From NCBI GenBank assembly GCA_963664115.2, contig CAXWPJ010000011.1, positions 1 through 64,000 on the forward strand: 64,000 bases of DNA, given 5' to 3'. Each line of letters begins with the position of its first letter. The stretch's first letter is position 1. The translations under genes and the position numbers were made by a program. This DNA comes from Terriglobia bacterium (GTDB lineage Bacteria > Acidobacteriota > Terriglobia > 20CM-2-55-15). Positions 892 through 48,086 of the stretch are shown one piece after another. Under the pieces are notes generated by a model. It was given only the letters and a program-made list of their open reading frames with translations, did no database searches and was not told the DNA's origin.

Positions 892-1099
892 TCGCCACAG
901 TGTTCTTTCAGTTTTCGTAGAGCGTGCACTCTGGGCGCTCTGACGAGCCTACCTCCTCAGTTCGACTATCCGTTTTGGTTCGAATGCGACCTTCAACATT
1001 GCCGGATATACGCTGCGGGGCATAACTACAGTGATCTAGAACTCGATAGCAACGGAACATTCCGCAAATGCCAATTCTCAACGTCCGACAAGATGATCT

Positions 1100-1467
1100 A
1101 TGAAAGGGGATGTCAAGAGAAACAGCTCCCCGATGGCCGGCCAGGCGGACACTTTTGTCGTGACAGCCAGCCCCTCTACCGTTATGTGAAGCCCTGGTTC
1201 CGGCAATCCGCAGCGAAATCGTACATCTTTAAGACGGTCGATTCAGAAACTGAACAGCAGATGGGACGGCATGTGCCGACCATGGATCTATCTGAGCCTC
1301 GAAGGCTATCGCTGTTTCAGGTCGTGCGAGGGGGGATAGAGATTTAAAAGTGTCCTCTGGACGTATCCAGGGACCACATCTTGTGCAGATCCTCACCCTC
1401 GATCCTCAGTTGTTCCGACTCCGTCTAACGACTCAGTACGGCTCTACCGGTCACGGATCGAAACGGC
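1100..1467 (-). ncRNA. Predicted bridge/seek RNA in the downstream non-coding region of IS1111-A
   Basis: 370-bp non-coding region after the transposase; minus strand has ACAAGATG and TAAATC either side of a hairpin, matching the two target halves. Confidence 0.65.
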
Positions 1468-2532
1468 TTATGTTGTCATCCAGCTCAGTTTCTTTGGATC
1501 GAACGATTCTCCTTTCTTCCAAAGCGTCAGCACCAGCGCGGCGATCTTGCGGGCCAGAGTGACCCGCGCCATTTCCTCCCGCATCCCACGCATCTGGAGA
1601 CTCTCCAGATAAATCCGATACGGCTCGCTTTGTTTTCCCGATGCCGCGGCTGAGAAGAACACCGACTTCAATCGCCGGTTGCAGTTCGCATTCAATCCGC
1701 GCGTGGCCACCGGTTTCCTCCGTCGCACCACACGTCCACTCTGCATCTCATACTCCGCGCTCATGTGGGTCACCACACCCAGGCCACTGTAGCTCCAGAA
1801 CTGCGGTGTCGTGCGGAATCGGTACGGCGTGTCCACGATGGCGACGATCTGTGCCGCCCGAACCGGTCCCAGTTGTGGAATGGTCTCGAGCAGTTTCACC
1901 GCCTCATGGTGCCGGCCCTCCACTCGCACCGCTTTTCTGGATTGTTTCCGCAGCAACTGGACCTGGTCCAGTTCCGCATACAACCATCGGGCGCGCTGCC
2001 TCATCCCCGGCTCGGTCAGCTTCTCCAACCACTGTTCGCGCTGACTCGGCCGATAGACTCCGTCCTTCGGTGTCGGGATCCCCCGTCCCCGGTATATCGC
2101 TTTGATCCGCGACATCACCCGTTGCGTGTCCAACTGGAACGTGTCATAGGCCTGCACCAGTTGCTTCAATTCTCGCGTCGCTTCATGGCCGTGATACACC
2201 GAGCGCAACAGTCCCACCCGCAACAGCTCGGCCAGCTTCCGCGCATCCGGCTTATCCCCCTTCGACCCTTCTTGCATCCACTTGTTCTGTCGCGGATCGC
2301 ACACCACCACCTCGCTCACCCACGGCCGGATCACTTCCGATAACCAGCCCGCTTGCGTGGTCTCCTCCAACCCCACGTGCATCGGCCCACTCAATCCCTC
2401 CAGCAGCCGTGTGATACTCCCCGCCTCGGTTTCCACGATCGTTTCAAACACCAGTTTGCCGCTCCCGTCTCTCACCGCAACCACCGTCGTTGCCTGGTGC
2501 ACATCCATACCCATATACTTGTCTTGTTTCAT
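1468..2532 (-). CDS. IS110 family transposase/recombinase
   Basis: N-terminal GMDVH, E and DxxDA DEDD motifs; IPQLGP and YSGLG C-terminal motifs. Confidence 0.93.
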   Translation of the reverse strand: MKQDKYMGMDVHQATTVVAVRDGSGKLVFETIVETEAGSITRLLEGLSGPMHVGLEETTQAGWLSEVIRPWVSEVVVCDPRQNKWMQEGSKGDKPDARKLAELLRVGLLRSVYHGHEATRELKQLVQAYDTFQLDTQRVMSRIKAIYRGRGIPTPKDGVYRPSQREQWLEKLTEPGMRQRARWLYAELDQVQLLRKQSRKAVRVEGRHHEAVKLLETIPQLGPVRAAQIVAIVDTPYRFRTTPQFWSYSGLGVVTHMSAEYEMQSGRVVRRRKPVATRGLNANCNRRLKSVFFSAAASGKQSEPYRIYLESLQMRGMREEMARVTLARKIAALVLTLWKKGESFDPKKLSWMTT

Positions 2533-2804
2533 CTCGAACGCTCCTTTTCTGGGATCAACGCTGTATACGTTGATCAGGTTGTTGAGTGAGTCTTCTCTCA
2601 ACAACCCCCAGTCTAGGGGCGTCCTTTCATACTGCGATTTAACAGGACTTGAGAATGGATTTCGGAGATGGACAGGTCTGCCATCCGACTCTGTTGGGAT
2701 GGCATGATTCACGAGCCCATGCAGCGTTGACGTAGACAAAGATTGACATGCAGTACATTCTTCGTTTTCATGTGACCTACCTCAAGGGAATCGGAGGGAA
2801 AGAC

Positions 2805-3848: not shown

Positions 3849-3904
3849 TGGAGGTGGGCTGAGGTCACGGCTTCGTGAGGAGGGCCACTTAACCCCCTTT
3901 AGAA

Positions 3905-3944
3905 TTCTCAAGGTCCGAGAAGATGATTTATCAGGACTTGAAAA
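3905..3944. repeat. 40-bp palindromic repeat copy
   Basis: ttctcaaggtccgagaagatgatttatcaggacttgaaaa. Confidence 0.9.
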
Positions 3945-4028
3945 CAGATTTCAGGCTTTTGAGGGGATAGAACGCCGCTTCACGGCACCGGCAGTAGCGT
4001 GTCCGAAGGCTAGAGAATATCCGAAGCA

Positions 4029-5120
4029 TCAATCGGTCAGGAAGTGATACATGCCGAGGACGTTCTCGTCGACCCAATCGAAGTCCCCCCAGTGACTGTA
4101 CTCTTCCATCTTGATGTCTCGTTGCATGTCCTCCAGTGTCTGGCCCGAAGCGATGCCGGCGGCAACCTCGTCTCGGAGTGTTTCGAAGTACTCTCGCCAC
4201 GCTCTGACGTCTTCCCGGGTGCCCACCGGCCCGTGGCCTGTCGCAACGAACTCAAAGTCTGCCGCTAGCTCCTCCGTTTGACTGATAGCAGCCATCCACT
4301 CTTCGAACATCCCGAGTTCGTAGTCCATCTCCCTGTTCGGAAGCCGCCCGAACGAGACATAGTCGACGATCAACATCACGCTGTCGTCTGGAAAGGTGAT
4401 CATGCTCGAGTCCTTCGAGTGATTCATCTCGCCAACCCAGGTCAGGTTCACCCGTTTTCCGCCCAAGTTGATCTGAAACTCGTCTGTATAGGTGATATCA
4501 GGAGGACGCACAAAGCTAATTGGTCCGCGCACAACCTCCGCGCCGCTGAGCACGCCGTCCTCGTTCGCGTCGAATCCTTCGAACTGGCTCTGGCTCGAGC
4601 CGGCGAAGCGCTGGAGGTCCGCAGGTGTCTCACTTTCCTCAACCACTCCGTTGCCGTTGGTATCCAGCGCCGCCACGGGCTCGTACTGCCCAACGACTTG
4701 CGAGAGCGTGGTAGACGCTGGCGGCATCGCCAGGTACGAGAGCATGTTGGCATGACCCACAAACCGGGCCGTATCCGCGAAGACGTCCCCGCCGGAGGCA
4801 TGGTCCCAGTGGTAGTGGCTGTAGACGACGTATCTGACCGGGACCCCGAACCGAGCGGCGAACTCCTCCTTCAGCCACATCGAGAATTCAATGTTGATCG
4901 GATCCGCCAAGACGATGCCTTCCGGCGTGACCAGGAAGACGGTGCCGTGGTTGTTGCTCATAGCCCTGTAGACGCCGCCGGCGATGTGCTCAATCGTCCA
5001 TCGCGTTGCCTCGGTGGGCGACGAACGCCTCAACTCAGGCGTCTGGCCAAAGCCCCCTGACGCGAGCACCAGCGCTGCGACCAAAACCGCCAGAATCACG
5101 CTTGTCGTACTGCTACGCAT
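4029..5120 (-). CDS. Secreted metallo-beta-lactamase-fold hydrolase with inserted EF-hand-like loops
   Basis: SHYHWDH, HS and GHG motifs; DTNGNGVVEESE and DANEDGVLSGAE loops. Confidence 0.85.
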   Translation of the reverse strand: MRSSTTSVILAVLVAALVLASGGFGQTPELRRSSPTEATRWTIEHIAGGVYRAMSNNHGTVFLVTPEGIVLADPINIEFSMWLKEEFAARFGVPVRYVVYSHYHWDHASGGDVFADTARFVGHANMLSYLAMPPASTTLSQVVGQYEPVAALDTNGNGVVEESETPADLQRFAGSSQSQFEGFDANEDGVLSGAEVVRGPISFVRPPDITYTDEFQINLGGKRVNLTWVGEMNHSKDSSMITFPDDSVMLIVDYVSFGRLPNREMDYELGMFEEWMAAISQTEELAADFEFVATGHGPVGTREDVRAWREYFETLRDEVAAGIASGQTLEDMQRDIKMEEYSHWGDFDWVDENVLGMYHFLTD

Positions 5121-5445
5121 TCGCTTCTCCTTACTAGCATTTACTGGCCGCCTCGACTTCGGTTTGTTTATAGCGGAGAGTGACGGCAGTGAGGTACAGC
5201 CAGAACGTGAGGGCTAGAACGGCATACAGAGAATCCACATCGAGGCTTGTGAACGCACTTAGGAGCAGAGCTGCAACCCAAACAACGACTATGGCTTTAC
5301 GCATGCTTTCCACTGGCCACACCTCGGAGAAATCTTAGCACGCCTCACGCAACTCAACAGCGACTCCGCCCACCGCCTCGGTTCCAAGTTGTTGATTTTG
5401 GGGGATGACTCGGCAGGCTCGGTTGATGCCGGCCTAGGTTGTAAA

Positions 5446-5485
5446 AGTTCAACGTCCGAGAAGATGATTTCTCAGGACTTGACCA
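5446..5485. repeat. 40-bp palindromic repeat copy with mismatched outer arms
   Basis: ttcaacgtccgagaagatgatttctcaggacttgacc. Confidence 0.9.
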
Positions 5486-5494
5486 AGCAAATCT

Positions 5495-5905
5495 ACGACA
5501 CCGTCAGCGCTCTGATAGTTGTCAGACCCCGCTTGTTCCGCTTATCCGCTCAACATGGGCAAGTTCACCAACTGGCTGGACGCGGGGCGGGTCGTGCTGA
5601 ACACGTTCCGGCTGTACGCCGAGTTCAACGGCACGCTGACGCCCATCACCGACAACGAGGCGTTGCGGGTGGCAACCGACGAGTACAACGCCATCGTGCG
5701 GGCAAGGGCATGAACGGTCAGCCCATACGCCGGACCACACCTTCGATCAGCTCACCATCGTCTGCTTCGCAGCCCAGTGGGTGGCGATGACGTCTGTCTG
5801 CTGACTGACAGGAAGCACATGTGCACTCTGGTGAAAAAGTATCCTCGATCGATCAACTTGCCAATGCCAGCAGAAGCTATTGCGGGTCAAGGGACGCCGC
5901 GTAAG
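5495..5905. repeat. 411-bp segment duplicated in inverted orientation at 33479-33889
   Basis: Direct comparison; near-identical ORF translations at both sites. Confidence 0.9.
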
Positions 5906-6923
5906 CAACAAGGTACAGCAAGTCTTCCGTACTGAGATCGGCAACGACCGGCGTCATCAGCTCAGACCACAGTCCCTTACGCGTGCCCTGCTGCATGTCA
6001 TACAACGCCCGCATGAGGTAACTGGCAGACCGACCCGCGATTCCAGGCAAGGGGCCGAGACCCTTCAGACCTGGACCGTGACAGATACTGCACTGCCCGG
6101 CCTCGGCCAATGCCCTACCCTTCTCGACCGCACCAACCGGAACATAAGCGATCCAGCCGGACCTCGGATTACGGTGCACCTCTGCGTGCTCGATATTCTC
6201 CGGGGTTTCAACGATACGCAGCCCGATCGGTTCAGTGCCCGACGTAGCAGCAGTAGCCTGGCACTCCGTGAAGATGTCGATTTCACAGTCCACTGGGAGA
6301 TAAATGCCCCCCAGCGTGTAGCTCTCGAATACGGTGTCGGTCTCCACGACCCGGACCCATGGCCTCCAAGGCTGTGCGCCGAAGTACTCGGCAGCAGCAA
6401 CGATCTCCTCTTCGGTCATGTTCTTCGCGATTTGGGTCATCGTCCGAGCGTTGTTCTTTCTCGGTTCTGAGCTATTCCTCAGATCGTTGCGAAAATCGTC
6501 CATCTGCTGGATGAAATACGAAACCGGTAAGCCCGCGACGCCAGCGTTCTCCGGGCGCCCCTGCCCATTGGGGTAGTGACAAAGCGCACACGCCCGCACG
6601 ACAGCGCCCTCCTCTGCCGTCCGACCGTTCGCAACGATGTCAGGCATCGGCGTTGGATGGTCGTCGGGATACCAGTCGGCGGGAGAGCGACCGCGAATCT
6701 GGGTGGCCGTGAACGTCCGGTCAGTATCGGGCAAGCTGAAGACCGTCCCATCCTCTTCCGGACGGGGAGGACGCGGCCCCAATGGGATGCCATAGGCCCA
6801 ATCAGGTCGCTCAGTCTGCACCAATGCTTGGCCGTTAGCCGATTGCTCGCTCTGGGCGCTCAATACGCCAACAACAACCACGGGCATCGCCAACAAGACA
6901 ACGAAACCTAGAATTTTCTGCAT
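5877..6923 (-). CDS. Di-heme cytochrome c4-like protein
   Basis: CALCH and CSICH heme motifs; signal peptide. Confidence 0.88.
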   Translation of the reverse strand: MQKILGFVVLLAMPVVVVGVLSAQSEQSANGQALVQTERPDWAYGIPLGPRPPRPEEDGTVFSLPDTDRTFTATQIRGRSPADWYPDDHPTPMPDIVANGRTAEEGAVVRACALCHYPNGQGRPENAGVAGLPVSYFIQQMDDFRNDLRNSSEPRKNNARTMTQIAKNMTEEEIVAAAEYFGAQPWRPWVRVVETDTVFESYTLGGIYLPVDCEIDIFTECQATAATSGTEPIGLRIVETPENIEHAEVHRNPRSGWIAYVPVGAVEKGRALAEAGQCSICHGPGLKGLGPLPGIAGRSASYLMRALYDMQQGTRKGLWSELMTPVVADLSTEDLLYLVAYAASLDPQ

Positions 6924-7121
6924 GACGTCCCTCCCTCCTGCTACTCCTTGCTACACGGCACTCCGCAGAACCGCGACCGGCATTGACAGGTTGATCCTAG
7001 CACGGCCATCGAGTCCCGTCCGAAGTGTATCAGCCTCGTCCCGACCTTGCCGAGATCAGTCCCATGACCATGGCCCGTTCTCAACCCAAATTGCCTCGAT
7101 CGCATCAGGCACGGTCATCCA

Positions 7122-7385
7122 GGTACTGTCAACTTACGGGTCCAAAGGTCGAACCTGTGCCAGATCGGCGCCGCTCGATCAGCCTACCGAGACCGCATTC
7201 CAAGTCGCAAAGGAACGGGCCCGAAGCATCTGGTGGTGAACCGCTTTTAGTCTGTGCCTTCCCAACGGGAAAAGATTCAGAACGACACCGTGAACTGAGA
7301 GGAAGAGTTGCGCCTGCCGTGGCGACTTGAACCGTCGCATCTGTCGCTCCCGTTGTCGGGTCGGTTGGTGTGGCCGTGCGGGCAC
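7122..7385 (-). pseudogene. IS6-family remnant: transposase C-terminus plus terminal inverted repeat
   Basis: HQPTRQRERQMRRFKSPRQAQ motif; GGTACTGTCAACTT end at 7122-7135. Confidence 0.75.
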
Positions 7386-7504
7386 TTCAAATCTGAGGAT
7401 GTTGTGGACACTGTCCGGGGAGGTTGAGCGAGAAGCGTGAGGGTCCTGAGAACCCGTTGAAGCAGCAAACGAAAAGTCCGAGCGCCTTTAACAGCTCTTC
7501 GCGA

Positions 7505-7544
7505 AGGTCAATGTCCGAGAAGATGATTTATCAGGACTTTACCG
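7505..7544. repeat. 40-bp palindromic repeat copy (GGTCAA arm type), next to a kinase-tail repeat at about 7551-7600
   Basis: ggtcaatgtccgagaagatgatttatcaggactttacc. Confidence 0.85.
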
Positions 7545-7643
7545 CGAAAATCAGAGAATCGGCACCCGTTCTTTTAGTTCTTCAAACCAACGTCAGGCTG
7601 TTTTATACGTTCACGTTCGCAGCTCCAACGCTCACCTCGAAGA

Positions 7644-7865
7644 TTACGAATTCTTCTGGTATGGAGATACCTTCGCCGCACTGTAATCAGAGCGATGCCC
7701 GCATTCAGATTCGCTGCAGGTGAGAAACAGCTGTGCCAGCGGCTCGAACGGACCGCGTCCTTCGGTTCGATCCAGACCGAACAAAATCGGCGAGTGGCAT
7801 TTCGCACAAAGCACACTCAAGTACCATCGCTTCTCAGTCGATTTTGGAAATCGGGAAAACTGCAT
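7644..7865 (-). CDS. Small putative Zn-ribbon protein, paralog of 43743-43994
   Basis: RWYLxVLCxxCxSPILF...LTCxxxECG..DYS shared by both copies. Confidence 0.7.
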   Translation of the reverse strand: MQFSRFPKSTEKRWYLSVLCAKCHSPILFGLDRTEGRGPFEPLAQLFLTCSESECGHRSDYSAAKVSPYQKNS

Positions 7866-7890
7866 AAGCACACGGTTTTGGAGGATCGCG

Positions 7891-8142
7891 CAATTCTCAA
7901 CGTCCGACAAGATGATTTCTCAGGACTTGAGAATGATTTTCACCTCTTTTGCCGGCCCCGCCAGCTGCAGCGGCTTGTTAGGCCCCAAACGTGGACCTCG
8001 ACCACCCGTGGAGCCTGGAGCGCCAGCGGAAGGCCGTCCACTGCATCCCGTGTTAGGCAATATTATTTTGCCCAAACAAGTTCATTGAGAATCGATACTC
8101 TGAGTAGGGCATGGCTCCATCTGTCATATTCCGAGTATCCCC
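7891..8142 (-). pseudogene. Inverted duplicate of the GNAT unit 3' end (55272-55523), cut off by IS256
   Basis: 252 bp near-identical; one end at the repeat, the other at the IS256 inverted repeat. Confidence 0.88.
7894..7933. repeat. 40-bp palindromic repeat copy
   Basis: ttctcaacgtccgacaagatgatttctcaggacttgagaa. Confidence 0.92.
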
Positions 8143-9527
8143 GAGTTATAACCGAATCTGGTGTTTGAGGGATTGAATAAGAGCGGCGTATCTGGTTGAT
8201 TTGTTGTGACAAAACTTCAAAGCAACCATAGGAGATACGCCACTGTGAGCAAGAGTAACGTGAATGGACCGGAAGGTCGAGAAACGATTGAGGATCCAGT
8301 AACAGAACTACTACGAGTTGGGGCACAGCAACTGATCCAACGCGCAGTGGAAGCCGAATTGGCAGAGCTGCTATCCCAGCACGGTGGCCGGCGAACTGAG
8401 ACAGGAAACGCCGGGGTGGTACGCAACGGTTATCTGCCGGAACGCGAACTGCAGACGGGATTGGGTCCGGTAACAGTCCAAATCCCGAAGGTCCGTGCCA
8501 AGACGGGCGAAGCTGTGACGTTCCGATCGGCCCTGGTACCACCGTACATTCGGAAGACGAAGTCGCTGGAAGCAGCGGTGCCGTGGTTGTATTTGAAAGG
8601 CGTTTCCAGCGGCGAGATGGGTGAGGCCCTAAAAGTTCTTGTCGGTCCCCAGGCGCAGGGTCTGTCGGCGAGCACGGTATCGCGGTTGAAACAGGTTTGG
8701 GGCGAACAGTACCGCCTCGGATGCGAGGAGCGTTTGGATGCAGATCGCTGGGTCTATGTCTGGGCCGACGGCATCTACAGCGGACTTCGGGCGGAACAAA
8801 CCAAGTTGTGTGCATTGGTCGTGATCGGCGTGAATGAACGCGGAGAGAAGCGTTTCCTGGCGATCGAAGACGGTGTACGGGAATCGACACAGAGTTGGCG
8901 CGAGGTCTTGTTGAAGCTGAAGTCCCGTGGGATGAATGTTCCGAAGTTGGCCATCGGTGACGGTGCGATGGGGTTCTGGGCCGCACTGGAGGAAATCTAT
9001 CCCGAGACACGTCAACAACGTTGCTGGATGCACAAAGTCATGAACGTCCTCAACTGCCTGCCCAAGTCGGTCCAGGCGAAGGCGAAACAGGCCCTGCACT
9101 CGATCTGGCAGGCCGAGACGAAGGCAGACGCCGAGAAGGCATTCGACTTGTTCATTGAAACCTATGAACCGAAGTATCCGAAAGCCACACTCTGCCTGCA
9201 GAAAGACAGAGAGGAACTGCTGGCCTTTTACGACTTTCCGGCCAAGCACTGGCAGAGCATCAGAACGACGAATCCCATTGAGTCGACCTTTGCCACCATT
9301 CGACACCGAACGAAGCGATCCAGAGGTTGCCTGACACGGGATGGCATGCTGCACATGATGTTCAAACTGGGCCAGTGCGCTGAGAACAATTGGCGACGAT
9401 TACGAGGATTCGATGATCTGAGCAAGGTAATCATCGGAGTGAAATTCAACGATGGTGTCGAAGCGACACAAGTCGATCAGGCCGCCGCTTGAATCAATCT
9501 CCTAAACACCACTTTTGACAATAACTC
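8143..9527 (+). mobile_element. IS256 family copy 1 (transposase 8206-9492), no target duplication
   Basis: GAGTTAT... terminal inverted repeats; Mutator-type DDE motifs (WADG, IGDG, QRCWMH, TNPIES). Confidence 0.95.
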
Positions 9528-10134: not shown

Positions 10135-10148
10135 TCAAAATTCTCCTG

Positions 10149-11533
10149 GAGTTATTGTCAAATGTGGTGTTTAGGAGATTGATTCAAGCGGCGGCCTGAT
10201 CGACTTGTGTCGCTTCGACACCATCGTTGAATTTCACTCCGATGATTACCTTGCTCAGATCATCGAATCCTCGTAATCGTCGCCAATTGTTCTCAGCGCA
10301 CTGGCCCAGTTTGAACATCATGTGCAGCATGCCATCCCGTGTCAGGCAACCTCTGGATCGCTTCGTTCGGTGTCGAATGGTGGCAAAGGTCGACTCAATG
10401 GGATTCGTCGTTCTGATGCTCTGCCAGTGCTTGGCCGGAAAGTCGTAAAAGGCCAGCAGTTCCTCTCTGTCTTTCTGCAGGCAGAGTGTGGCTTTCGGAT
10501 ACTTCGGTTCATAGGTTTCAATGAACAAGTCGAATGCCTTCTCGGCGTCTGCCTTCGTCTCGGCCTGCCAGATCGAGTGCAGGGCCTGTTTCGCCTTCGC
10601 CTGGACCGACTTGGGCAGGCAGTTGAGGACGTTCATGACTTTGTGCATCCAGCAACGTTGTTGACGTGTCTCGGGATAGATTTCCTCCAGTGCGGCCCAG
10701 AACCCCATCGCACCGTCACCGATGGCCAACTTCGGAACATTCATCCCACGGGACTTCAGCTTCAACAAGACCTCGCGCCAACTCTGTGTCGATTCCCGTA
10801 CACCGTCTTCGATCGCCAGGAAACGCTTCTCTCCGCGTTCATTCACGCCGATCACGACCAATGCACACAACTTGGTTTGTTCCGCCCGAAGTCCGCTGTA
10901 GATGCCGTCGGCCCAGACATAGACCCAGCGATCTGCATCCAAACGCTCCTCGCATCCGAGGCGGTACTGTTCGCCCCAAACCTGTTTCAACCGCGATACC
11001 GTGCTCGCCGACAGACCCTGCGCCTGGGGACCGACAAGAACTTTTAGGGCCTCACCCATCTCGCCGCTGGAAACGCCTTTCAAATACAACCACGGCACCG
11101 CTGCTTCCAGCGACTTCGTCTTCCGAATGTACGGTGGTACCAGGGCCGATCGGAACGTCACAGCTTCGCCCGTCTTGGCACGGACCTTCGGGATTTGGAC
11201 TGTTACCGGACCCAATCCCGTCTGCAGTTCGCGTTCCGGCAGATAACCGTTGCGTACCACCCCGGCGTTTCCTGTCTCAGTTCGCCGGCCACCGTGCTGG
11301 GATAGCAGCTCTGCCAATTCGGCTTCCACTGCGCGTTGGATCAGTTGCTGTGCCCCAACTCGTAGTAGTTCTGTTACTGGATCCTCAATCGTTTCTCGAC
11401 CTTCCGGTCCATTCACGTTACTCTTGCTCACAGTGGCGTATCTCCTATGGTTGCTTTGAAGTTTTGTCACAACAAATCAACCAGATACGCCGCTCTTATT
11501 CAATCCCTCAAACACCAGATTCGTTTATAACTC
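10149..11533 (-). mobile_element. IS256 copy 2 with 9-bp target duplication ATTCTCCTG
   Basis: Identical transposase; duplication at 10140-10148 and 11534-11542. Confidence 0.95.
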
Positions 11534-12461: not shown

Positions 12462-13846
12462 GAGTTATTGTCAAAAGTGGTGTTTAGGAGATTGATTCAA
12501 GCGGCGGCCTGATCGACTTGTGTCGCTTCGACACCATCGTTGAATTTCACTCCGATGATTACCTTGCTCAGATCATCGAATCCTCGTAATCGTCGCCAAT
12601 TGTTCTCAGCGCACTGGCCCAGTTTGAACATCATGTGCAGCATGCCATCCCGTGTCAGGCAACCTCTGGATCGCTTCGTTCGGTGTCGAATGGTGGCAAA
12701 GGTCGACTCAATGGGATTCGTCGTTCTGATGCTCTGCCAGTGCTTGGCCGGAAAGTCGTAAAAGGCCAGCAGTTCCTCTCTGTCTTTCTGCAGGCAGAGT
12801 GTGGCTTTCGGATACTTCGGTTCATAGGTTTCAATGAACAAGTCGAATGCCTTCTCGGCGTCTGCCTTCGTCTCGGCCTGCCAGATCGAGTGCAGGGCCT
12901 GTTTCGCCTTCGCCTGGACCGACTTGGGCAGGCAGTTGAGGACGTTCATGACTTTGTGCATCCAGCAACGTTGTTGACGTGTCTCGGGATAGATTTCCTC
13001 CAGTGCGGCCCAGAACCCCATCGCACCGTCACCGATGGCCAACTTCGGAACATTCATCCCACGGGACTTCAGCTTCAACAAGACCTCGCGCCAACTCTGT
13101 GTCGATTCCCGTACACCGTCTTCGATCGCCAGGAAACGCTTCTCTCCGCGTTCATTCACGCCGATCACGACCAATGCACACAACTTGGTTTGTTCCGCCC
13201 GAAGTCCGCTGTAGATGCCGTCGGCCCAGACATAGACCCAGCGATCTGCATCCAAACGCTCCTCGCATCCGAGGCGGTACTGTTCGCCCCAAACCTGTTT
13301 CAACCGCGATACCGTGCTCGCCGACAGACCCTGCGCCTGGGGACCGACAAGAACTTTTAGGGCCTCACCCATCTCGCCGCTGGAAACGCCTTTCAAATAC
13401 AACCACGGCACCGCTGCTTCCAGCGACTTCGTCTTCCGAATGTACGGTGGTACCAGGGCCGATCGGAACGTCACAGCTTCGCCCGTCTTGGCACGGACCT
13501 TCGGGATTTGGACTGTTACCGGACCCAATCCCGTCTGCAGTTCGCGTTCCGGCAGATAACCGTTGCGTACCACCCCGGCGTTTCCTGTCTCAGTTCGCCG
13601 GCCACCGTGCTGGGATAGCAGCTCTGCCAATTCGGCTTCCACTGCGCGTTGGATCAGTTGCTGTGCCCCAACTCGTAGTAGTTCTGTTACTGGATCCTCA
13701 ATCGTTTCTCGACCTTCCGGTCCATTCACGTTACTCTTGCTCACAGTGGCGTATCTCCTATGGTTGCTTTGAAGTTTTGTCACAACAAATCAACCAGATA
13801 CGCCGCTCTTATTCAATCCCTCAAACACCAGATTCGGTTATAACTC
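12462..13846 (-). mobile_element. IS256 copy 3, no target duplication
   Basis: Identical transposase 12497-13783 and inverted repeats. Confidence 0.95.
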
Positions 13847-14029
13847 GAGGGGCGGAATCACAAAGTAGATGACGGTCAGCCCCGCTCCGACCAACCATAT
13901 GGTGCACGCGACTGCGACCGATTCACCACGGAAATACGCCAGCGATCCGGTCAGAATCGTAAACGCACCAAGCAGGATTCCAAATATCAGGAGGTCGCGG
14001 TGGTTCGGATTCCGATTGATCTTGATCAT
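13847..14029 (-). pseudogene. SxtJ-like membrane protein, truncated by IS256
   Basis: Hydrophobic ORF directly downstream of the carbamoyltransferase, a common pairing. Confidence 0.55.
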
Positions 14030-18769: not shown

Positions 18770-18826
18770 ATCAACGTCGTCCTGAACTGGTTTGAAGAAC
18801 TGAAGGAACGGGTGGCGGTTCCCTGA
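18770..18826 (+). repeat. Orphan kinase C-terminal tail (INVVLNWFEELKERVAVP*)
   Basis: Homologous to seven other copies; preceded by an isolated IS6-like end at 18744-18757. Confidence 0.8.
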
Positions 18827-18920: not shown

Positions 18921-19538
18921 ATGAAAGAACTGCTCGCCGTTGATGTTGCTCTGCTGCTACCAGAGGAAACAAACGAACTCTGCAAACGAATCAACACGGC
19001 TCTGGTGCAGGATGACCCCACAGGTTTTGCTTTTGACTCAACTCACTTTCCTCACGTTACGTTAGTTCAGCAGTTCGTCTTGAAATCGAACCTAGCCGCG
19101 CTATGCAGTGAAATAGAGAAAGTTTTGAAGGGCCGATCCCCGTTGCGACTACGGGCGTTAGAAACAGCTTTCGTCGGAACTCCAACGCTTCTCCGCATTG
19201 CGAAAACAAAAGCGTTAAGGCAGATTCACGACGATCTGGTGAACGCCTTAGCGGGGCTGTCCAAGTCGTGGGGTGACGGCAGTGCCTTCTTCTCACAAGG
19301 ACAGAGCGTTCAGGGCTGGGAGATCGAATACGTTACCGAATATCGGGAAGCCGCGAGCTTTGACAGGTATGACCCCCATGTCACCCTCGGCGTCGGTCGG
19401 AGCGAGATCCCAATGCAGCCGTTCTCCTTTACAGCCGATCTCGTCGGTTTGTACCAGCTGGGAAAATTCTGCACCTGTCGCCGACGGTTGCAGGAGTGGA
19501 GACTGAACTCTGCGACTCTCAACCCAGAATCGTCCTGA
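18921..19538 (+). CDS. 2H phosphoesterase (2'-5' RNA ligase family)
   Basis: Two HVTL motifs. Confidence 0.85.
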   Translation: MKELLAVDVALLLPEETNELCKRINTALVQDDPTGFAFDSTHFPHVTLVQQFVLKSNLAALCSEIEKVLKGRSPLRLRALETAFVGTPTLLRIAKTKALRQIHDDLVNALAGLSKSWGDGSAFFSQGQSVQGWEIEYVTEYREAASFDRYDPHVTLGVGRSEIPMQPFSFTADLVGLYQLGKFCTCRRRLQEWRLNSATLNPESS

Positions 19539-19683
19539 ACTGGTTTGAAGAACTGAAGGAACGTGTGCCGGTGCCGTAGTTTTCCTGGTCAAGTCCTGAG
19601 AAATCATCTTCTCGGACGTTGAGAACCCCCGTTTTTAGGCCTTTTCTCACTGTCCGAGAAGGTCCTTTATCAGGACCTGAGCT
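19529..19683. repeat. Kinase tail (19529-19579), repeat (19586-19625) and an inverted degenerate repeat (19644-19683)
   Basis: Direct sequence match to both repeat families. Confidence 0.85.
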
Positions 19684-21071: not shown

Positions 21072-21088
21072 GAAATCCATTCTCAAGT
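21072..21088. repeat. Half repeat forming the 3' exon of the outer group II intron
   Basis: gaaatccattctcaagt is the reverse complement of acttgagaatggatttc (compare 2647-2663). Confidence 0.8.
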
Positions 21089-21119
21089 ATCGCGGTAGGG
21101 ATGCCGGTCACCCGGCACC

Positions 21120-23057
21120 ACCGGGTCGCCAGAGGCGGTCACCCGCCTCCGGCTCCCACAGAACGTAGCGTGCGGATTTCCCGCACTACGCTCTTCAGAA
21201 ACGGATTCACAACACAGCAAGAGACTGGAACTCCCGATACGGAAGCGCCAGCTTGGGCCGCTGCAACGGAAAGCGCGTCTTAATCCGGTTGAATACCTCC
21301 CACCGGACGTAACCAGCGCGACTCCGGCTGCTCAGCATCTTGCGCCAGTAACGCTCCACGACCCGAGCAACGTGCTGGAGGGCCCGGAAGTTTCCGGCGA
21401 TGCCGTAGTAGGCGTAGTGACCACGCAAGACCCGATTCAGATTCTGAACCTGCTCCCGGACCGGCAAGTGACGCATTCGTCTCATCAGATCGCGTAGATG
21501 GGCCAGACTGCGTTGAAGTCGAGACTTCTCAGTGCGCAATCCCACCCGGAAATTGCCTTTGCGATTCTGCGAGCAGTACAGGGTCATGCCCAGAAAGTAG
21601 ATCGTTTCTGGACGTTTTCTCCCGTGCTTGCCCGCATCCCGCTGAGCAAAGCGACCGAATTCAACGAGCTTTGTCTTTGTCGGTTCCAGAACCAGCCCAA
21701 ACTTTCCCAATCGCTTGCGCAGCACGTTCTGAAAACGAAGCGCATCGTCCCAATATTGGAAACACACCACAAAGTCGTCGATGTACCGCACCAGATAGGC
21801 TTCACCTTTCAGGTGTGGCCGGACCATCCGGTCAAACCACAGGTCGAGCACATAGTGCAGGTACAGATTGCTCAGCAGAACGCTGATCGACCCACCCTGT
21901 GGGGTTCCCTCATCGTTGGGATGCAATTCTCCGTCTTCGAACACCCCCGCCTTCAACCATCGTCGAATCAGGCTGATGATCCGCGGATCTCCGACTCGAT
22001 GCTCCACAAAGCGGAGTAGCCATCCATGGTCTAAACTCCCGAAAAAGTTCTTCAGGTCTGCCTCCAACACCCAACTCACCTTGCGCCCAGCAATCACCTC
22101 ATGCAGGGTTGCCAGTGCATAGTGCGCACCCAGCCCAGGCCGACCACCAAAAGAACAAGGCAAGAAGTCCTGTTCGTAGATGGCTGTCAGCACCTCGGCC
22201 ACGCTGCGCTGAAGGGCCCGATCTTGAACACAAGGCACGCCCAGGGGACGTTTCTCCTGTTTGCCGGGCTTGGGGATATACACTCGCCGAATCGGCGGTG
22301 CGCGATATCCCTTCCGGTGTACCGATTCGAGCATCGGCTCCACCCAGTCCCCGAATTCTTCCTTCGCCTCCGGCACTCTCTGGCCATCACATCCGGGAGC
22401 AGAGTTCCGTGGAATCGCACAAAGGCTCTTCCACACCCTCTCTCGGGTGACATGATGCGCCAGCGATGTGAACCGGAGCTTGGGTTCACTCCGAGCTTTC
22501 GCTGCTATTTGTTCCAGTTTCGTTTCCATGACTGGCAGTTCCTCTCGTTGTATAGAGGGCCGAATCCTCCCATTGAATGGAGCCCCTGTTTCCCTTGAAC
22601 AATTCCTCTTCCGCTGACCGCTTCCCCATGTGATCGGTTCTCCCGACCTCGGAGTACTATCAGTCAGTCTGACTTCCGCCAGGCCTTCGGGTTGTCCTCA
22701 CGTTGTGGGCTTGTCCAACCCTACAAGCTCCGCTTGAGCCTGACGGATCTCCCTTGTTCCCATGAAATCTCTCAGTTATATGCCGGCGGTACGAACCCCG
22801 GAAGCACCCCAGAACGCTTGCCATTGCACGCCCTGCGATTCCGCCTTCCCCATAGAGAGACAAGGTCGGCTACTTCAACCACGATCGATTTCGGGGCTAT
22901 CTTTCCGTTCACTTGCGTTCCGGCCTACTCCCTCCCTGTCTACGCTTCGCAGTGACCGTTACCGGCCCCCACGCAAGACTCGGTTCGTGGCTGCGGGCTA
23001 AGCTTTGCCACGGGCGCCATTTCAGGCGACTAGACTTCATGCGCTTTCAAGGCGCAA
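21120..23057 (-). mobile_element. Inner RT-encoding group II intron
   Basis: Starts TTGCG; D5 GAGCGTAGTGCGGGAAATCCGCACGCTACGTTC and D6 follow the ORF. Confidence 0.88.
21207..22529 (-). CDS. ltrA: Group II intron reverse transcriptase/maturase without an endonuclease domain
   Basis: RPLGVP, GTPQGG, RYIDDF, domain X (LRGHYAYY). Confidence 0.93.
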   Translation of the reverse strand: METKLEQIAAKARSEPKLRFTSLAHHVTRERVWKSLCAIPRNSAPGCDGQRVPEAKEEFGDWVEPMLESVHRKGYRAPPIRRVYIPKPGKQEKRPLGVPCVQDRALQRSVAEVLTAIYEQDFLPCSFGGRPGLGAHYALATLHEVIAGRKVSWVLEADLKNFFGSLDHGWLLRFVEHRVGDPRIISLIRRWLKAGVFEDGELHPNDEGTPQGGSISVLLSNLYLHYVLDLWFDRMVRPHLKGEAYLVRYIDDFVVCFQYWDDALRFQNVLRKRLGKFGLVLEPTKTKLVEFGRFAQRDAGKHGRKRPETIYFLGMTLYCSQNRKGNFRVGLRTEKSRLQRSLAHLRDLMRRMRHLPVREQVQNLNRVLRGHYAYYGIAGNFRALQHVARVVERYWRKMLSSRSRAGYVRWEVFNRIKTRFPLQRPKLALPYREFQSLAVL

Positions 23058-23516
23058 CCCCGCGCAGATCCGTACGTGCGGATACTGCATACGGCTCCTA
23101 CTTCGGATGAATAGCGGTACACACGACGTACCGCACACCGCACAACCCCTGCGTCACGAAGAGCCCGCTCTGAGTCGGGATCGTGGGGAATTCGAACGAT
23201 GTTCTCCTCGGTCCGCGGCCTTCCCTCCCCCTCCTCCGCCGAGTACGGGGCCTCTTTGTTCGGCCGGTTAAAAGGTACAACGACGCGGTCAGACTTCTCC
23301 CGGGCGTACACGTCCGTCGTGCGGACTTGGCCTTCACGGACCGGTCTGGATCGTGCGACCCAGACACCCAGGAGATCTCCCGGATCTCGCGCATGTTGTT
23401 TCTCAGCGTGCGCGTCGTGTTGCCTTCCCCTTATCACGAGAGAGTCGGCATCCTTAGCACGGGTCTTAGACTACCGAGGACCGACAGACCATTTGCGATT
23501 TAACGCAGCCTATGGA

Positions 23517-23918
23517 CTACTTGACAAAGATCTCCATGATGTCCACCGGGGACGCAAGGATGTTACGGAAGCCGTGTAGCGTGCCTGCGTTCATATAGTA
23601 CGGCTGCCAGGGTGGCACCTCTACGGACTGGCCGCCTTCGAGGTCCAGCGTCATCGGGCCCGTAATCGGTACGAAAAGGTGGAATTTTACGTCATCGTGG
23701 GAGTGAATCACCCGCGCCCCACCAGACTCTACTCTAACCCGGAGCGCACGAACTTCCGGTTGATCACGTAGCACTGCATTGCTCACGCCTACGTTCCCGG
23801 TACCGGTGAGCGGCAGGAGCGGAATCGTGCGGTTGCCCGTCACGACTGTGGTTTGTGCCGCCAGGGCGACCAGGGAAAGCGACACGAGGCCGATCAAGAG
23901 AACGGTGAATCGTCGCAT
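23517..23918 (-). CDS. Secreted cupin-domain protein
   Basis: HSH and GTLHGFRN cupin motifs; signal peptide. Confidence 0.75.
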   Translation of the reverse strand: MRRFTVLLIGLVSLSLVALAAQTTVVTGNRTIPLLPLTGTGNVGVSNAVLRDQPEVRALRVRVESGGARVIHSHDDVKFHLFVPITGPMTLDLEGGQSVEVPPWQPYYMNAGTLHGFRNILASPVDIMEIFVK

Positions 23919-24228
23919 GGAGTCCTCCATAAAGTAAGTTGCTGACTCACTGCAGGGAATTATATTGAGCAACGCGGATTGATACTTACAGCGTTAACCC
24001 GTCACCCTCGTAATATAAACGAGCGGAGAGCCAATACGAGGCATTTCCGATTAGTTTACACTCGCGTGAGGACCAAGGAACGCTTGTGCTTCTACCGGTA
24101 CCTAATTAAGACTGAGCACCACGAACTCGGCTGGTGTAGCCCGTCACAGCATTTCGTACAGAAACCACTAAACAACTAGGAGGCACTTTTCTAATCTGAA
24201 TGATCTCCAGGAGGACCGAAAGCCACAA

Positions 24229-24322
24229 GTCCTGAACTGGTTTGATGAACTGAAGGAACGGGTGCCGGTCCCCTGATTTTCGAGGTCAAGTCCTGAGAAA
24301 TTACCTTCTCGGACATTGAGAA
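24229..24322. repeat. Kinase tail (24229-24276) plus palindromic repeat (24283-24322)
   Basis: gtcctgaactggtttgatgaactg...ccctga then ggtcaagtcctgagaaattaccttctcggacattgagaa. Confidence 0.88.
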
Positions 24323-27607: not shown

Positions 27608-27664
27608 ATCAACATCGTCCTGAAGTGGTATGAAGAACTGAAGGAAAGCGTGCCGGTCCGGTGA
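27608..27664 (+). repeat. Orphan kinase tail, followed by a degenerate repeat arm (ttttcaagtc)
   Basis: atcaacatcgtcctgaagtggtatgaagaactgaaggaa...gtga. Confidence 0.75.
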
Positions 27665-27784
27665 AGGTCGTTTTCAAGTCGCGTGAAACCGTGCCAGCCG
27701 CGCCCATTACAGGCGGGATAGATACGGCGCTGGAGGATATTGTTTGTGGAGGGTGGGGTTCGAGAAGTTACGGTTCGATCGAAC

Positions 27785-28968: not shown

Positions 28969-30509
28969 CTATGAAAGGGGATGTCAAGAGAAACAGCTCC
29001 CCGATGGCCGGCCAGACGGACACTTTTGTCGTGACAGCCAGCCCCTCTACCGTTATGTGAAGCCCTGGTTCCGGCAATCCGCAGCGAAATCGTACATCTT
29101 TAAGACGGTCGATTCAGAAACTGAACAGCATATGGGACGGCATGTGCCGACCATGGATCTATCTGAGCCTCGAAGGCTATCGCTGTTTCAGGTCGTGCGA
29201 GGGGGGATAGAGATTTAAAAGTGTCCTCTGGACGTATCCAGGGACCACATCTTGTGCAGATCCTCACCCTCGATCCTCAGTTGTTCCGACTCCGTCTAAC
29301 GACTCAGTACGGCTCTACCGGTCACGGATCGAAACGGCTTATGTTGTCATCCAGCTCAGTTTCTTTGGATCGAACGATTCTCCTTTCTTCCAAAGCGTCA
29401 GCACCAGTGCGGCGATCTTACGGGCCAGAGTGACCCGCGCCATTTCCTCCCGCATCCCACGCATCTGGAGACTCTCCAGATAAATCCGATACGGCTCGCT
29501 TTGTTTTCCCGATGCCGCGGCTGAGAAGAACACCGACTTCAATCGCCGGTTGCAGTTCGCATTCAATCCGCGTGTGGCCACCGGTTTCCTCCGTCGCACC
29601 ACACGTCCACTCTGCATCTCATACTCCGCGCTCATGTGGGTCACCACACCCAGGCCACTGTAGCTCCAGAACTGCGGTGTCGTGCGGAATCGGTACGGCG
29701 TGTCCACGATGGCGACGATCTGTGCCGCCCGAACCGGTCCCAGTTGTGGAATGGTCTCGAGCAGTTTCACCGCCTCATGGTGCCGGCCCTCCACTCGCAC
29801 CGCTTTTCTGGATTGTTTCCGCAGCAACTGGACCTGGTCCAGTTCCGCATACAACCATCGGGCGCGCTGCCTCATCCCCGGCTCGGTCAGCTTCTCCAAC
29901 CACTGTTCGCGCTGACTCGGCCGATAGACTCCGTCCTTCGGTGTCGGGATCCCCCGTCCCCGGTATATCGCTTTGATCCGCGACATCACCCGTTGCGTGT
30001 CCAACTGGAACGTGTCATAGGCCTGCACCAGTTGCTTCAATTCTCGCGTCGCTTCATGGCCGTGATACACCGAGCGCAACAGTCCCACCCGCAACAGCTC
30101 GGCCAGCTTCCGCGCATCCGGCTTATCCCCCTTCGACCCTTCTTGCATCCACTTGTTCTGTCGCGGATCGCACACCACCACCTCGCTCACCCACGGCCGG
30201 ATCACTTCCGATAACCAGCCCGCTTGCGTGGTCTCCTCCAACCCCACGTGCATCGGCCCACTCAATCCCTCCAGCAGCCGTGTGATACTCCCCGCCTCGG
30301 TTTCCACGATCGTTTCAAACACCAGTTTGCCGCTCCCGTCTCTCACCGCAACCACCGTCGTTGCCTGGTGCACATCCATACCCATATACTTGTCTTGTTT
30401 CATCTCGAACGCTCCTTTTCTGGGATCAACGCTGTATACGTTGATCAGGTTGTTGAGTGAGTCTTCTCTCAACAACCCCCAGTCTAGGGGCGTCCTTTCA
30501 TACTGCGAT
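28969..30509 (-). mobile_element. IS1111-A copy 2 (transposase 29339-30403), in a repeat split into 28946-28968 and 30510-30526
   Basis: Same ends, core and insertion position as copy 1. Confidence 0.93.
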
Positions 30510-30532
30510 TTATCAGGACTTGACCTCGTAAA

Positions 30533-30900
30533 TCAGGGCACCGGCACCCGTTCCTTCAGTTCTTCAAACCAATTCAGAACGACGTTGATCCTCGGAGTAT
30601 CACCATCCAAACTTGCTCCTTCTATCGGGTCGACAAACAAGAATCGCTCTCCGTCGGGAGTCCGAGTCAAGTCGTAGGGCAGGAATATCGCGGGTTCGAT
30701 GCCTACTCCCAATCCCGCCACGGAAACAGTTGGGCCTGCTCTCCACGGCTAAACCCGGAACTCGTCTGGACTGAAACCGCATCAATGAAGAAACCCTGAA
30801 CATACAAGAAGTATATTTCGTCCTGTTCAACGGACCAGATCGGCGCGAAACCTAAATCATCCGACACGGACCTGAGCGTATCGCCGGTCAAGGGATACTC
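30533..30900 (-). pseudogene. Decayed C-terminus of a Ser/Thr kinase with TolB-like repeats
   Basis: GFAPIWS..EIYF and YDL..DGERFLFV...INVVLNWFEELKERVPVP, frameshifted. Confidence 0.65.
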
Positions 30901-32156: not shown

Positions 32157-32498
32157 CAGGGCGATCGGCCCGGCAGCCGACCGTAAAGACCACCAGGTGC
32201 GGACAGACACGCCGCCCGGTTGACCCGGGCAGTGTTGTCAAATGCACTCAAACTGCAATCAGGGACATGTGGGCTCAGCATTCTTCCTGAATGCCGCTGA
32301 CAGATCCAATGTTCTGGATTGCCGTAGAGACCTACGTGATGCCCAAACACCAGGCGAATTTTCGCGACTAATCTGCCATGAACTGGTTCCGGGCACCTTT
32401 CCGGTTAGGGGACCATACAGGACTTGGAATCAATACCGCCCTATCCAGGAAGCATCGTGTGGAATTGCTGGGGTTGAAGAGCCTGTCTTTAGCGACCG

Positions 32499-32555
32499 CT
32501 ACGGAACCGGGACCCGTTCCTTCAGTTCTTCAAACCAGTTGAGGACGATGTTGAT
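32499..32555 (-). repeat. Orphan kinase tail
   Basis: Reverse complement encodes INIVLNWFEELKERVPVP*. Confidence 0.82.
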
Positions 32556-32779
32556 TCTTGGGCGCAAGGTTTCTTCCAAGTCGGCACGCTACTCGGGAGT
32601 TGGCACGACGATTCAGTAAACATTACGGCGTGAGTCATAGGCTCGATGTCTTGATCGTCGATTACTCCACAATGAATCGCTTGCAGTTGCCGGACTAACG
32701 GGCGAGACTAAAAACACACGAGCGTCGGCAGACAACCTGGCGTTCTCGCCTGCTTAACAAATCATCGGAGGAAAGTATC

Positions 32780-39570: not shown

Positions 39571-39779
39571 ATCCTTCCCGCCTTGGGGAGTGATTCGCAA
39601 ACGCCGCCCAGCAGGCTGACCGGAATCAGGGCACACATAGTCTAGTCGTTGTAACTTAAAATTAACCTCTCTGGCATCATATCAATGCGAGGCGGATAAG
39701 CGGTATAAGCAGGGTCTGACGACTATGGTAGCGCTGACAGTGTCGTAGATTTGCTTGGTCAAGTCCTGTATCTGGACTC

Positions 39780-40076
39780 CTCTGTCAAGTAGGCGCAGCT
39801 CTCCCGTCAGCTTTCTTCGGCAAAATGCATTCAGCAGGACTGACTAGAAGTTACGAGGTGAGTAGCTAGTCGACTGCACCCGTATCTTCGGCCTCAAAAG
39901 TGGAACTGTATTGTTCCGGGCCATGATGGAAATTTGCGCGCGGGGAGCCAACCGATAAAATAACGGCCTCTAAGGGCCAAAGGACTTGTCGGCGTTGCCC
40001 CGCGCCGGTCTGACCGGTACGCCATCATCTCGAACCTCATCGCAGCTCGCTGAAAAGATATTCCGACTGTTCCGGG
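39780..40076 (-). ncRNA. Predicted bridge/seek RNA of IS1111-B
   Basis: Internal loop at 39952-39992 carries CAAGTCCT and TTTAT, matching the two target halves. Confidence 0.68.
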
Positions 40077-41121
40077 TCAGGCCGCCTGATACCGGGCCTG
40101 ATGGTCACAGTCACGGTTCCAAACCGCCCACACGCGACGCGCCAACTTGTTGGCCAGTGCAACGATTGCCTTGTTGTGTCCGCGGAACTCGTGTTTCTGG
40201 AGACCCCATTGCTGGAGAGGTGTCGGTGTGGCGCCCTCTCGATGGGCACTCCACAACAGGGAACGGCCCCCATGAACCAACAGCATCCGGAGGTAACGAT
40301 CGCCTTGCTTACTGATCCGGCCCATGCGTCGCTGGTTGCCACTGGAATGTTCCCGGGGTGTGAGTCCCAGATAACTGGCAAAATGGCGGGACGTTCGGAA
40401 TCGTTTGATGTTTCCAACAAACCCCACCATTGCCGTTGCCGTTAACAGGCCGATGCCGGGAATCGACGTCAGACGCGCGACCTCAGGCATCTGCCGAGCC
40501 AGCGTCTTCAACTCTTGTTCCACCGATCGTAAGCGAGATTCCAATTCACGGATCTCGCCACACACCTGGTGAAACATCTCCCGAACGACACTGGGGATGA
40601 CGACATCTGCATCTTCGATCAGCTCCATTACCCCCGGCACCAGATGATCCGCTCCGGTCGGGATCACGTAGCCAAACTCCCGTAACAACCCCCGCACCGT
40701 ATTGATCCGTGCGGTTCGGGTTCGCATCCACGCCGAACGGATTCGATGCAATGAGGTCAGTTGCTGTTGGGCCAGGGTTTTGACCGGCACTGGATGAATA
40801 TCGCTGTCACGATAGGCTTCCAACAATCCTTTCACATCCGTACGGTCGGTCTTGTTGCGCCTGACGTAGGGCGTCACATACTGCGGCGAGATCAGAACGA
40901 CCGTGTGTCCCAGTTCCCGGATCTTCCGACCCCAGTAATGGGCGGATCCGCAGGCTTCCATCACCACGGTCGCCAGCTCCTGGTTCGCAAAGAACCCCAG
41001 AAACTTTGCCCGACTTAAACGATAGGTTTTCTCTACATGTTTTCTCTACACCGGGGCGATCTGAAACACCAATTTGGAAAACATTCTTTGCCAGATCCAC
41101 TGCTATCGTTCTATTCTTCAT
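40077..41121 (-). pseudogene. IS110 transposase frameshifted by a short tandem duplication
   Basis: VDLAKNVFQ in one frame, MEACG...KTDRTD...SSG in another; gttttctctaca duplicated at about 41026-41050. Confidence 0.85.
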
Positions 41122-41369
41122 CTCGGACTCCTTTTTGTTCACACTCACGTGTTTCGCCCGCTTTATTGCGAGGCTCAAAATGACTGTGGCACTTCGATGC
41201 CGACTCAGTCATCAAAGAGGAGTCCATACCATCAATAAACGACATTGTCGGACAGTGAGAATTGGCGAGCTGAGCGTGTCGCCACATTCCATTGAAACAG
41301 CATGGGATATGGCCAATTGGAGGCCATTCGAGGAACGGCAGGCGAGAGGAGAGTTTCCGTTCGGTGAAA

Positions 41370-41409
41370 TTCTCAATGTCCGAAAAGATGATTTATCAGG
41401 CGTTGAGAA
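41370..41409. repeat. 40-bp palindromic repeat copy
   Basis: ttctcaatgtccgaaaagatgatttatcaggcgttgagaa. Confidence 0.88.
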
Positions 41410-41597
41410 TGGATTTCAGCGGTGGTGTGAGACGAACGTGGCGGGACTGATCTCTCGGTTGCGACACCCCAAAAGTATCCATTTTTTTCGAGGAAGTTCC
41501 TCGTCCGTCAAGAAACCTGGACCATAACGGGCGCGCTGATATAGCATGTTTGCATTCCGAACAGCCAGACAATCAGTAAGTTTTTGGAGGCTCAACT

Positions 41598-42254: not shown

Positions 42255-42320
42255 CCGTCCCCCGGGCGAGCCGAGAACGATCGCGCTGAAACCGCTTCTT
42301 CTGCTATCAGGAGGTTAAAC

Positions 42321-48061: not shown

Positions 48062-48086
48062 TAAACTAAAGCGCGTTCGGGTTGCA

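Follow-up and report, generated by a model that had tools for sequence, protein, structure and literature searches.

Bacterial group II introns follow target rules that involve homing sites, terminators, or attC, according to the accessible part of a review (PMC4424553). Group IIC-attC introns, such as S.ma.I2, split the recombination sites of cassette arrays; in the portions consulted of PMC3001079 and PMC7923331, they are IIC elements without EBS2 that require a hairpin, with an IBS1 of 3 to 4 bp and the hairpin upstream of it. RmInt1 and RmInt2 (class D) are endonuclease-less and EBS-guided to a multicopy target, ISRm2011-2 and the inverted repeats of ISRm17, and RmInt2 enters a protein-binding end of a mobile element (PMC5894124, in part). 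Class E (IIE) includes S.me.I4 of S. meliloti pRmeGR4b, for which no multicopy dif-like target was found in the accessible parts of PMC5894124 and PMC3753933. Among DNA transposons, the IS1202-family elements ISAba32 and ISAjo2 are specialized on the Xer sites of mobile modules, pdif or dif; they are DDE transposons that insert 5 bp beside the XerC arm and leave the site intact (10.1101/2022.12.17.520857 and PMC10132070, in part).

The window analyzed here is a stretch of 64,000 nt (C11:1-64000) of a Terriglobia genome, G000, which has 4.89 Mb in 12 contigs; G002 and G003 are congeners of it. Our main reading, to which we give a probability of roughly 0.75, is that the window holds the dead remnant of a class E intron (the outer intron, as it contains a second one) after base 8 of the right arm of a repeat, most likely retrohomed there by EBS guidance, and that the repeat likely represents a Xer/dif-type recombination site where shuffled gene cassettes adjoin. 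As with the IIC-attC introns, a recombination site of a cassette array would be split, but this site is not attC, and the outer family belongs to class E and has both an EBS2 and an EBS1 of 6 to 7 bp. S.me.I4 resembles the outer family in its RT clade, the lack of an endonuclease, the use of both EBS1 and EBS2, a domain-5 loop that a crude parse gives as mostly 5 nt, and a size of about 650 nt without the ORF; the target is the difference. RmInt1 and RmInt2 share the endonuclease-less, EBS-guided entry into a multicopy target (and RmInt2 the protein-binding end), but their RTs belong to another class (30 to 39% identity), and the target here is likely a site-specific recombination site common to two intron lineages on opposite strands. 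Unlike ISAba32 and ISAjo2, the retroelements here enter the other arm and split the site.

The association of intron and repeat is real, targeted, and mechanistically ordinary, and the interest lies in what is targeted, in two intron lineages having converged on it, and in the cassette system to which they point. The mechanism follows the homing-site rule; what sets the case apart is a likely Xer-type crossover target reached independently by two lineages, which adds retroelements to the DNA transposons known as parasites of Xer sites. Our literature search, with most subscription papers outside it, found nothing on group II introns in Xer/dif sites or on this repeat, and the word "intron" is absent from the accessible part of 10.1101/2022.12.17.520857.

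The intron remnant and its junctions with the repeat

The sequence-only reading had placed the 3' end of a group II intron inside the palindromic repeat, and this proved exact to the base. On the minus strand the last base of the outer intron is 21089, and the right end of the repeat with its extension follows at 21088 to 21072, with zero letters between them (Table 1). Scored with a matrix built from the 177 repeat copies, the 20 nt past the junction reach 21.5 bits, as do 88 of 9,784,682 genome positions (62 listed repeat copies, 24 split or variant ones judged by eye, the junction itself, and 1 unrelated position), which puts the match well outside chance. One contig of an independent run bridges the junction with 31 intron letters, and two further contigs do so with 30, without differences, so the junction is not an assembly slip. 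The truncated and rearranged 5' part is spanned by contigs of four runs from four studies, one of which may be the source sample, and two RNA runs contain 20 to 31% of the sequence words of the region.

Table 1. Positions of intron parts, repeat copies, and neighboring elements in the window
Position	Strand	Feature	Support or remark
1098..2636	-	IS110-family element splitting another repeat copy in its central 6 bp (approximate ends)	uninterrupted allele on C6
19589..19680	.	two intact repeat copies back to back, common and minor spacer type	
21072..21088	-	3' exon: last 3 nt of the right arm, outer extension, common flank	other-run contigs bridge the junction
21089..21119	-	3' end of the outer intron with the 3' part of domain 6	matches ends of uninterrupted homologues
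21120..23057	-	inner group II intron, 1938 nt, in the domain 5/6 junction of the outer intron	Rfam RF02005, RF00029
21207..22529	-	reverse transcriptase/maturase of the inner intron, 440 aa	PF00078, PF08388
23058..23414	-	outer intron, last part of domain 1 through domain 5, no ORF	72-80% identity to homologues
23416..23454	-	EBS1 stem-loop of the outer intron	97% identity to the G002 intron over 39 nt
23461..23513	-	displaced domain-1 segment (5' of the EBS1 stem-loop, where 3' would be normal), marking the point of 5' truncation	
23517..23972	-	cupin-domain gene adjoining the truncated intron; not its original 5' exon	PF07883
24286..24319	-	intact repeat copy, same orientation as the split one	
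28969..30507	-	second copy of the same IS110 element, likewise within the central 6 bp of a repeat (approximate ends)	
39769..40967	-	IS110/IS1111-type element 2: right end and transposase adjoining the right half of a repeat	

The sequence-only reading had found no matching 5' exon half, and the window does not contain one. The intron lacks roughly its first 170 nt, EBS2 included, the loss falling just after the stop codon of the cupin gene, and two domain-1 segments are swapped. The homologues with 72 to 80% identity to the remaining part come as ORF-less copies (about 655 nt) and as RT-bearing copies (about 1917 nt). Domain 4 is just a short hairpin at about 23134 to 23114, and domain 5 with the start of domain 6 occupies 23097 to 23058, directly after which the inner intron interrupts. 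EBS1 (23438 to 23432), one letter different from that of the congener G002, pairs at 6 of 7 positions with 64 of the 177 repeat copies. Judging from these losses, the window copy is predicted to be a dead remnant.

The locus is rearranged, with its 5' truncation, swapped segments, and missing 5' half, which would also suit an accidental junction, produced by a deletion, a recombination event, or a misassembly that brought an intron end next to half a repeat. We consider this highly improbable, as the intron ends base exactly, its EBS1 is complementary in register, contigs from other runs bridge the window junction, and the reciprocal 5' junction occurs at two independent loci. At the first of these, on C1 of G002, the 5' 209 nt of the intron stand directly after the left arm, the center, and the first eight bases of the right arm of the repeat, and the EBS1 stem-loop is one letter apart from that of the window. 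A second 5' remnant starts at the same base of the repeat on C9 of G000 and has an orthologue on C1 of G003; these two have two extra bases at the intron start and end at 138 nt, before the EBS loops. The C9 and G003 remnants have the same flanks and thus represent one event, while the left flank in G002 differs from theirs, so this is a second event, and at least two insertions took place in all. In three genomes and at two independent loci, then, the 5' exon end predicted by the sequence-only reading directly precedes the start of a homologous intron, and this end pairs with EBS1; the proposal that a further class of element exploits the repeat holds on the same grounds.

In the G002 copy, EBS1 is complementary to the right arm of the repeat, and EBS2, unique among 38 types, to its central bases. 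With G-U pairs allowed and one +1 pair assumed, this EBS set pairs at 14 of 14 positions at 51 places in G000, 45 of which are repeat copies, and at 13 or more of 14 at 182 places, 122 of them repeats. Homing to the repeat is well supported, and we regard it as the firmest part of our interpretation. What was found of the outer lineage within the repeat amounts to three 5' remnants and the 3' remnant of the window, none of them a complete copy. Among 401 genomes of the class, the exact 3' junction pattern occurs in this genome only, the 5' junction pattern was found in none of 401 genomes of the phylum (a sample without the congeners), and a search with short end patterns in five relatives stayed at background level. 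A metagenome scan with the EBS1 stem-loop gave 35 loci, 28 of them with a 5' junction (duplicates included). In 27 of the 28, the exon ends like the last bases of the repeat, and these 27 lookalikes were rejected as cases of this repeat, as their center and EBS2 differ.

The steps that led to the remnant most likely began with ordinary EBS1/EBS2-guided retrohoming of an endonuclease-less class E particle, which would enter a duplex recombination site. The ORF-less copy may have been moved in trans by a related RT, and trans action on ORF-less introns has been described (PMC4424553, in part). As for RmInt1, for which a fork-linked pathway is reported (PMC5894124, in part), the intron would have reverse spliced into DNA exposed as a single strand at the replication fork. 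Later decay removed the 5' end and EBS2, changed one letter of EBS1, swapped the domain-1 segments, and left domain 6 invaded by the second intron.

Near-identical copies of this inner intron are present on C4 and C5, along with a 3' part on C10, and each occupies the domain 5/6 junction of another intron; public runs also hold contigs without it. Its RT forms a long branch within the class E clade. The introns into which it homes belong to at least two RT classes, with the C4 host grouping with class D. The twintrons of Methanosarcina acetivorans (PMC4424553, in part) are alike in that introns home into other group II introns; this comparison covers the inner intron only and is an ordinary one.

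The repeat as a likely recombination site

The repeat has 177 copies in G000 when up to 6 mismatches are allowed. A stricter pattern gave 107 copies in G000 and 61 (G002), 28 (G003), and 8 in congeners; beyond these it occurs once each in two other family members, and is missing from 55 of 61 genomes. In viral contigs the repeat had 0 matches. The layout is 11-6-11 with an inner dyad, and the central 6 bp are conserved and asymmetric. The left arm matches two predicted acidobacterial dif XerC arms at 9 to 10 of 11 positions in 135 of the 177 copies (the references being predicted sites from the supplement of PMC3025954, consulted in part) and the candidate dif of the genome itself at 8 of 11 (by eye). 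The right arm matches XerD arms at 4 to 7 of 11 positions, with 7 in 35 copies and 6 in 105; XerD arms are normally the better conserved ones (PMC3025954, in part).

The copies are clustered in arrays with gene-sized spacing, and the strand of the repeat has no clear link to the local GC skew. While pdif sites alternate in orientation, neighboring copies of the repeat are direct in 75 cases and inverted in 23. In the Acinetobacter pdif modules and chromosomal dif module islands (PMC12907356, in part), there are likewise many clustered dif-like sites with one or a few genes between them; in comparison, the repeat has about 180 copies, a degenerate XerD-side arm, a mostly direct orientation, and an extra 5-bp outer symmetry. 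In 10 plus 9 strict pairs, flanking DNA has been swapped at the repeat, and the central positions are identical in 19 of 19; the pairs are not independent, and the exchange falls within the repeat, its crossover point not being localized.

The candidate canonical dif is a separate single site on C2, near 108,130 and about 8 kb from the skew maximum of the contig, and similar sites exist in 20 of 35 family genomes. The repeat itself was rejected as the chromosomal dif, as it is not a single copy near the terminus. XerC- and XerD-like genes (on C9 and C2; named by eye) are present in the genome, as are three serine resolvase genes, and recombinase genes near the insertions of the intron family were found at 7 of 174 loci, with no pattern. 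On C5, a 322-aa tyrosine recombinase (G000:C5:52062-53270; L190, L197) has a copy of the minor repeat type on either side, the two being inverted relative to each other; near-identical long flanks run into kinase-like gene starts on both sides (by eye), and the locus looks like an invertible switch. This integrase was rejected as the dedicated enzyme of the repeat, as it occurs in 9 of 35 family genomes and not in those richest in repeats; the query had no match in G002 (61 repeats) or G003 (28).

It is quite likely that the repeat is a recombination site of some kind, and, with rather less assurance, we take it for a Xer-type site. It would be the duplex site of a tyrosine recombinase, most likely the host XerC together with XerD or another partner. 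If the homing is real but the repeat is a REP- or MITE-like sequence or the tail of a kinase family, the introns would merely use abundant DNA, as RmInt1 does with ISRm2011-2. Many copies do lie just after the 3' end of a kinase gene, that tail is itself the target at 7 of 19 family loci, no recombinase specifically co-occurs (the C5 integrase was not found with the query in G002 or G003), and homologous recombination or insertion could yield the exchange of flanks. Nonetheless, we consider this explanation unlikely, given the 11-6-11 geometry with a XerC-like arm, the conserved non-palindromic center without hairpin covariation, the arrays clustered at gene-sized spacing, and the identical centers in 19 of 19 swapped pairs.

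Orphan tails of kinase genes (the last 15 to 20 codons) are found in the window at 18770-18826, 19523-19579, 24220-24276, 27608-27673, 30529-30592, and 32495-32558, usually beside a repeat. Sister introns in five relatives insert at the stop codon of the kinase tail.

Class and targets of the outer intron family

The family set comprises at least 117 loci from an intron-internal pattern and 35 more from the EBS1 pattern. Among the matches listed, there are 148 distinct 5' junctions, 91 with a parsable EBS1 loop and 98 with an EBS2 segment. Pairing of EBS1 with the exon across the family reaches 165 of 192 over 32 EBS1 types (mean of 88 and maximum of 117 in 10,000 permutations), and that of EBS2 reaches 171 of 228 over 38 types (mean of 136 and maximum of 153; best of four offsets). 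Only 1 of the 148 junctions among the matches listed is in this repeat, so the family retargets freely. Within the family to which the host belongs, the 19 intron loci are divided among the repeat (3), the 3' tail of the kinase gene (7), and other places (5), with 4 unassigned. Homologues with exons unrelated to the repeat, which the sequence-only reading had considered damaging to its idea, are thus literally the majority, but their EBS match their own exons, which is retargeting and not an absence of targeting.

RTs of the family have 54 to 60% identity to the class E reference, with which they form a clade with support of 100/99, against 30 to 39% to the class C and D references (30 to 35% to a class C reference for the outer-family RTs). 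This reference is the disrupted intron of pRmeGR4b, called class E in the accessible part of PMC5894124, of which one piece, the larger, was used. As far as the RTs of the homologues tell (the window copy has none, and the tree contains no IIC-attC RT), the outer family is class E and not IIC. In a full-length family RT, an endonuclease domain was not found, and PF00078 (RVT_1) was the only domain detected. The EBS1 spans 6 to 7 bp, EBS2 covaries with the exon, and in a crude parse the domain-5 loop has 5 nt in 28 of 44 copies and 4 nt in 16 of 44; a 5-nt loop is a trait of class E shared with class F (PMC3753933, in part).

Named homologues come mostly from Acidobacteriota, a phylum in which class E introns without an ORF, about 655 nt long, are common (23 listed; L054, L077, L155-L188); ORF-less bacterial introns are called rare in the accessible part of PMC4424553. 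Across the wider family, 47 empty sites have a weak dyad centered 11 bases upstream (197 matches; maximum of 171 in 2000 shuffles), and 142 junctions have a weak XerC-arm peak in the same register (4.2 of 11 versus about 2.9). Relatedness and bases recognized by the RT could explain both of these weak signals.

The earlier reading had also related the junction to group IIC-attC introns, which home to attC hairpins. The kinship is not supported: the RT is class E, EBS2 covaries, and the repeat has neither attC boxes nor hairpin covariation. As an echo of the parasites of integron attC, the idea stands ecologically but fails mechanistically (class E, EBS2, and the attC tests). If the repeat were an attC-like single-stranded hairpin, the intron would find the structure as IIC-attC introns do, and it is true that the consensus allows a stem of 15 bp, interrupted by two bulges, and that the genome has an integron-type integrase gene (by eye). 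However, with box and insertion consensus definitions taken from the accessible part of PMC7923331, attC R''/R' end boxes spaced 20 to 45 nt apart on either strand were found in 0 of 177 copies, and the IIC-attC insertion consensus (R box) in 0 of 177. There was no excess pairing at any of the 10 would-be pairs tested, with 70 paired cases observed versus 71.5 expected at the most variable would-be stem positions. The integrase gene is 196 kb from the nearest repeat on its contig, and the outer family has a class E RT with a covarying EBS2. In CALINs, a linked integron integrase is absent. The attC-hairpin reading is largely refuted, and we give it hardly any weight.

Other elements at the same bases

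A second, unrelated intron lineage has entered the same repeat. On C5, a 2003-nt intron with its own RT (G000:C5:39651-37649, L210; Rfam RF02003) splits a copy on the opposite strand, five bases from the site of the outer intron; it is complete and probably active. Two ORF-less copies in G002 (L227, L228; 861 to 864 nt, 95% identical) also split the repeat, and all three leave both repeat halves intact. They are 3 of 14 matches of this lineage, the 11 others being more distant and located elsewhere. By eye, EBS1 pairs at 7 of 7 positions (two G-U), EBS2 at 5 of 6, and one base pairs with +1. Of the 18 sites in the genome with which this EBS set pairs perfectly, 0 are repeats, and of the 377 near-perfect ones 49 are, so the pairing does not single out the repeat and a further target determinant is likely. 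The RT joins a class C reference on long branches flagged as unreliable, and the ORF-less size of 861 nt and the EBS2 argue against IIC.

Left ends of two IS110-family elements fall in the repeat center in 7 of 7 and 7 of 8 cases, and the cassette run of window positions 1 to 7950 recurs on C6 at about 39800 to 48400, there without the IS110 insertion. Like the outer intron, the second intron lineage and both IS110-family elements have ended up, by convergence, within the same few bases of the repeat. For the introns, the benefit would be a conserved, multicopy, gene-free target that travels with the cassettes, and an intron insertion would disable the recombination site.

A broader interpretation, which we put forward tentatively, is that the genus carries an undescribed chromosomal cassette system of some 180 Xer/dif-derived sites, driven by the host Xer proteins, with an integron-like guild of parasites. 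The guild would include two intron lineages whose EBS guides were independently reprogrammed onto the XerD-side arm, on opposite strands, together with two IS110/IS1111 elements in the center and an integrase-IS91 element beside it. Across Acidobacteriota, class E introns of the wider family may be pre-adapted to sites that resemble dif, as hinted by the weak dyad and XerC-arm signals in the same register. With five element types converging on about ten bases, the repeat stands out as the functional core of an extensive and apparently unstudied system of gene shuffling, and these parasites give defined substrates for a recombination assay.

Further elements were noted around the repeat. At least two more have recurring ends in its center (C2, C9, C10, and C12), one with 3 left and 9 right ends there and another with 3. 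Six identical elements with a tyrosine recombinase and an IS91-type Y2 transposase are present on C1, C2, and C12 (L025-L030), and most of them start about 20 to 45 bp from a repeat copy or variant (by eye). Finally, the window has six copies of a Mutator/IS256-family element (8143-9527, 10146-11533, 12462-13850, 53329-54772, 56960-58344, and 62151-63535), one of them interrupted and at least two ending beside a repeat copy.
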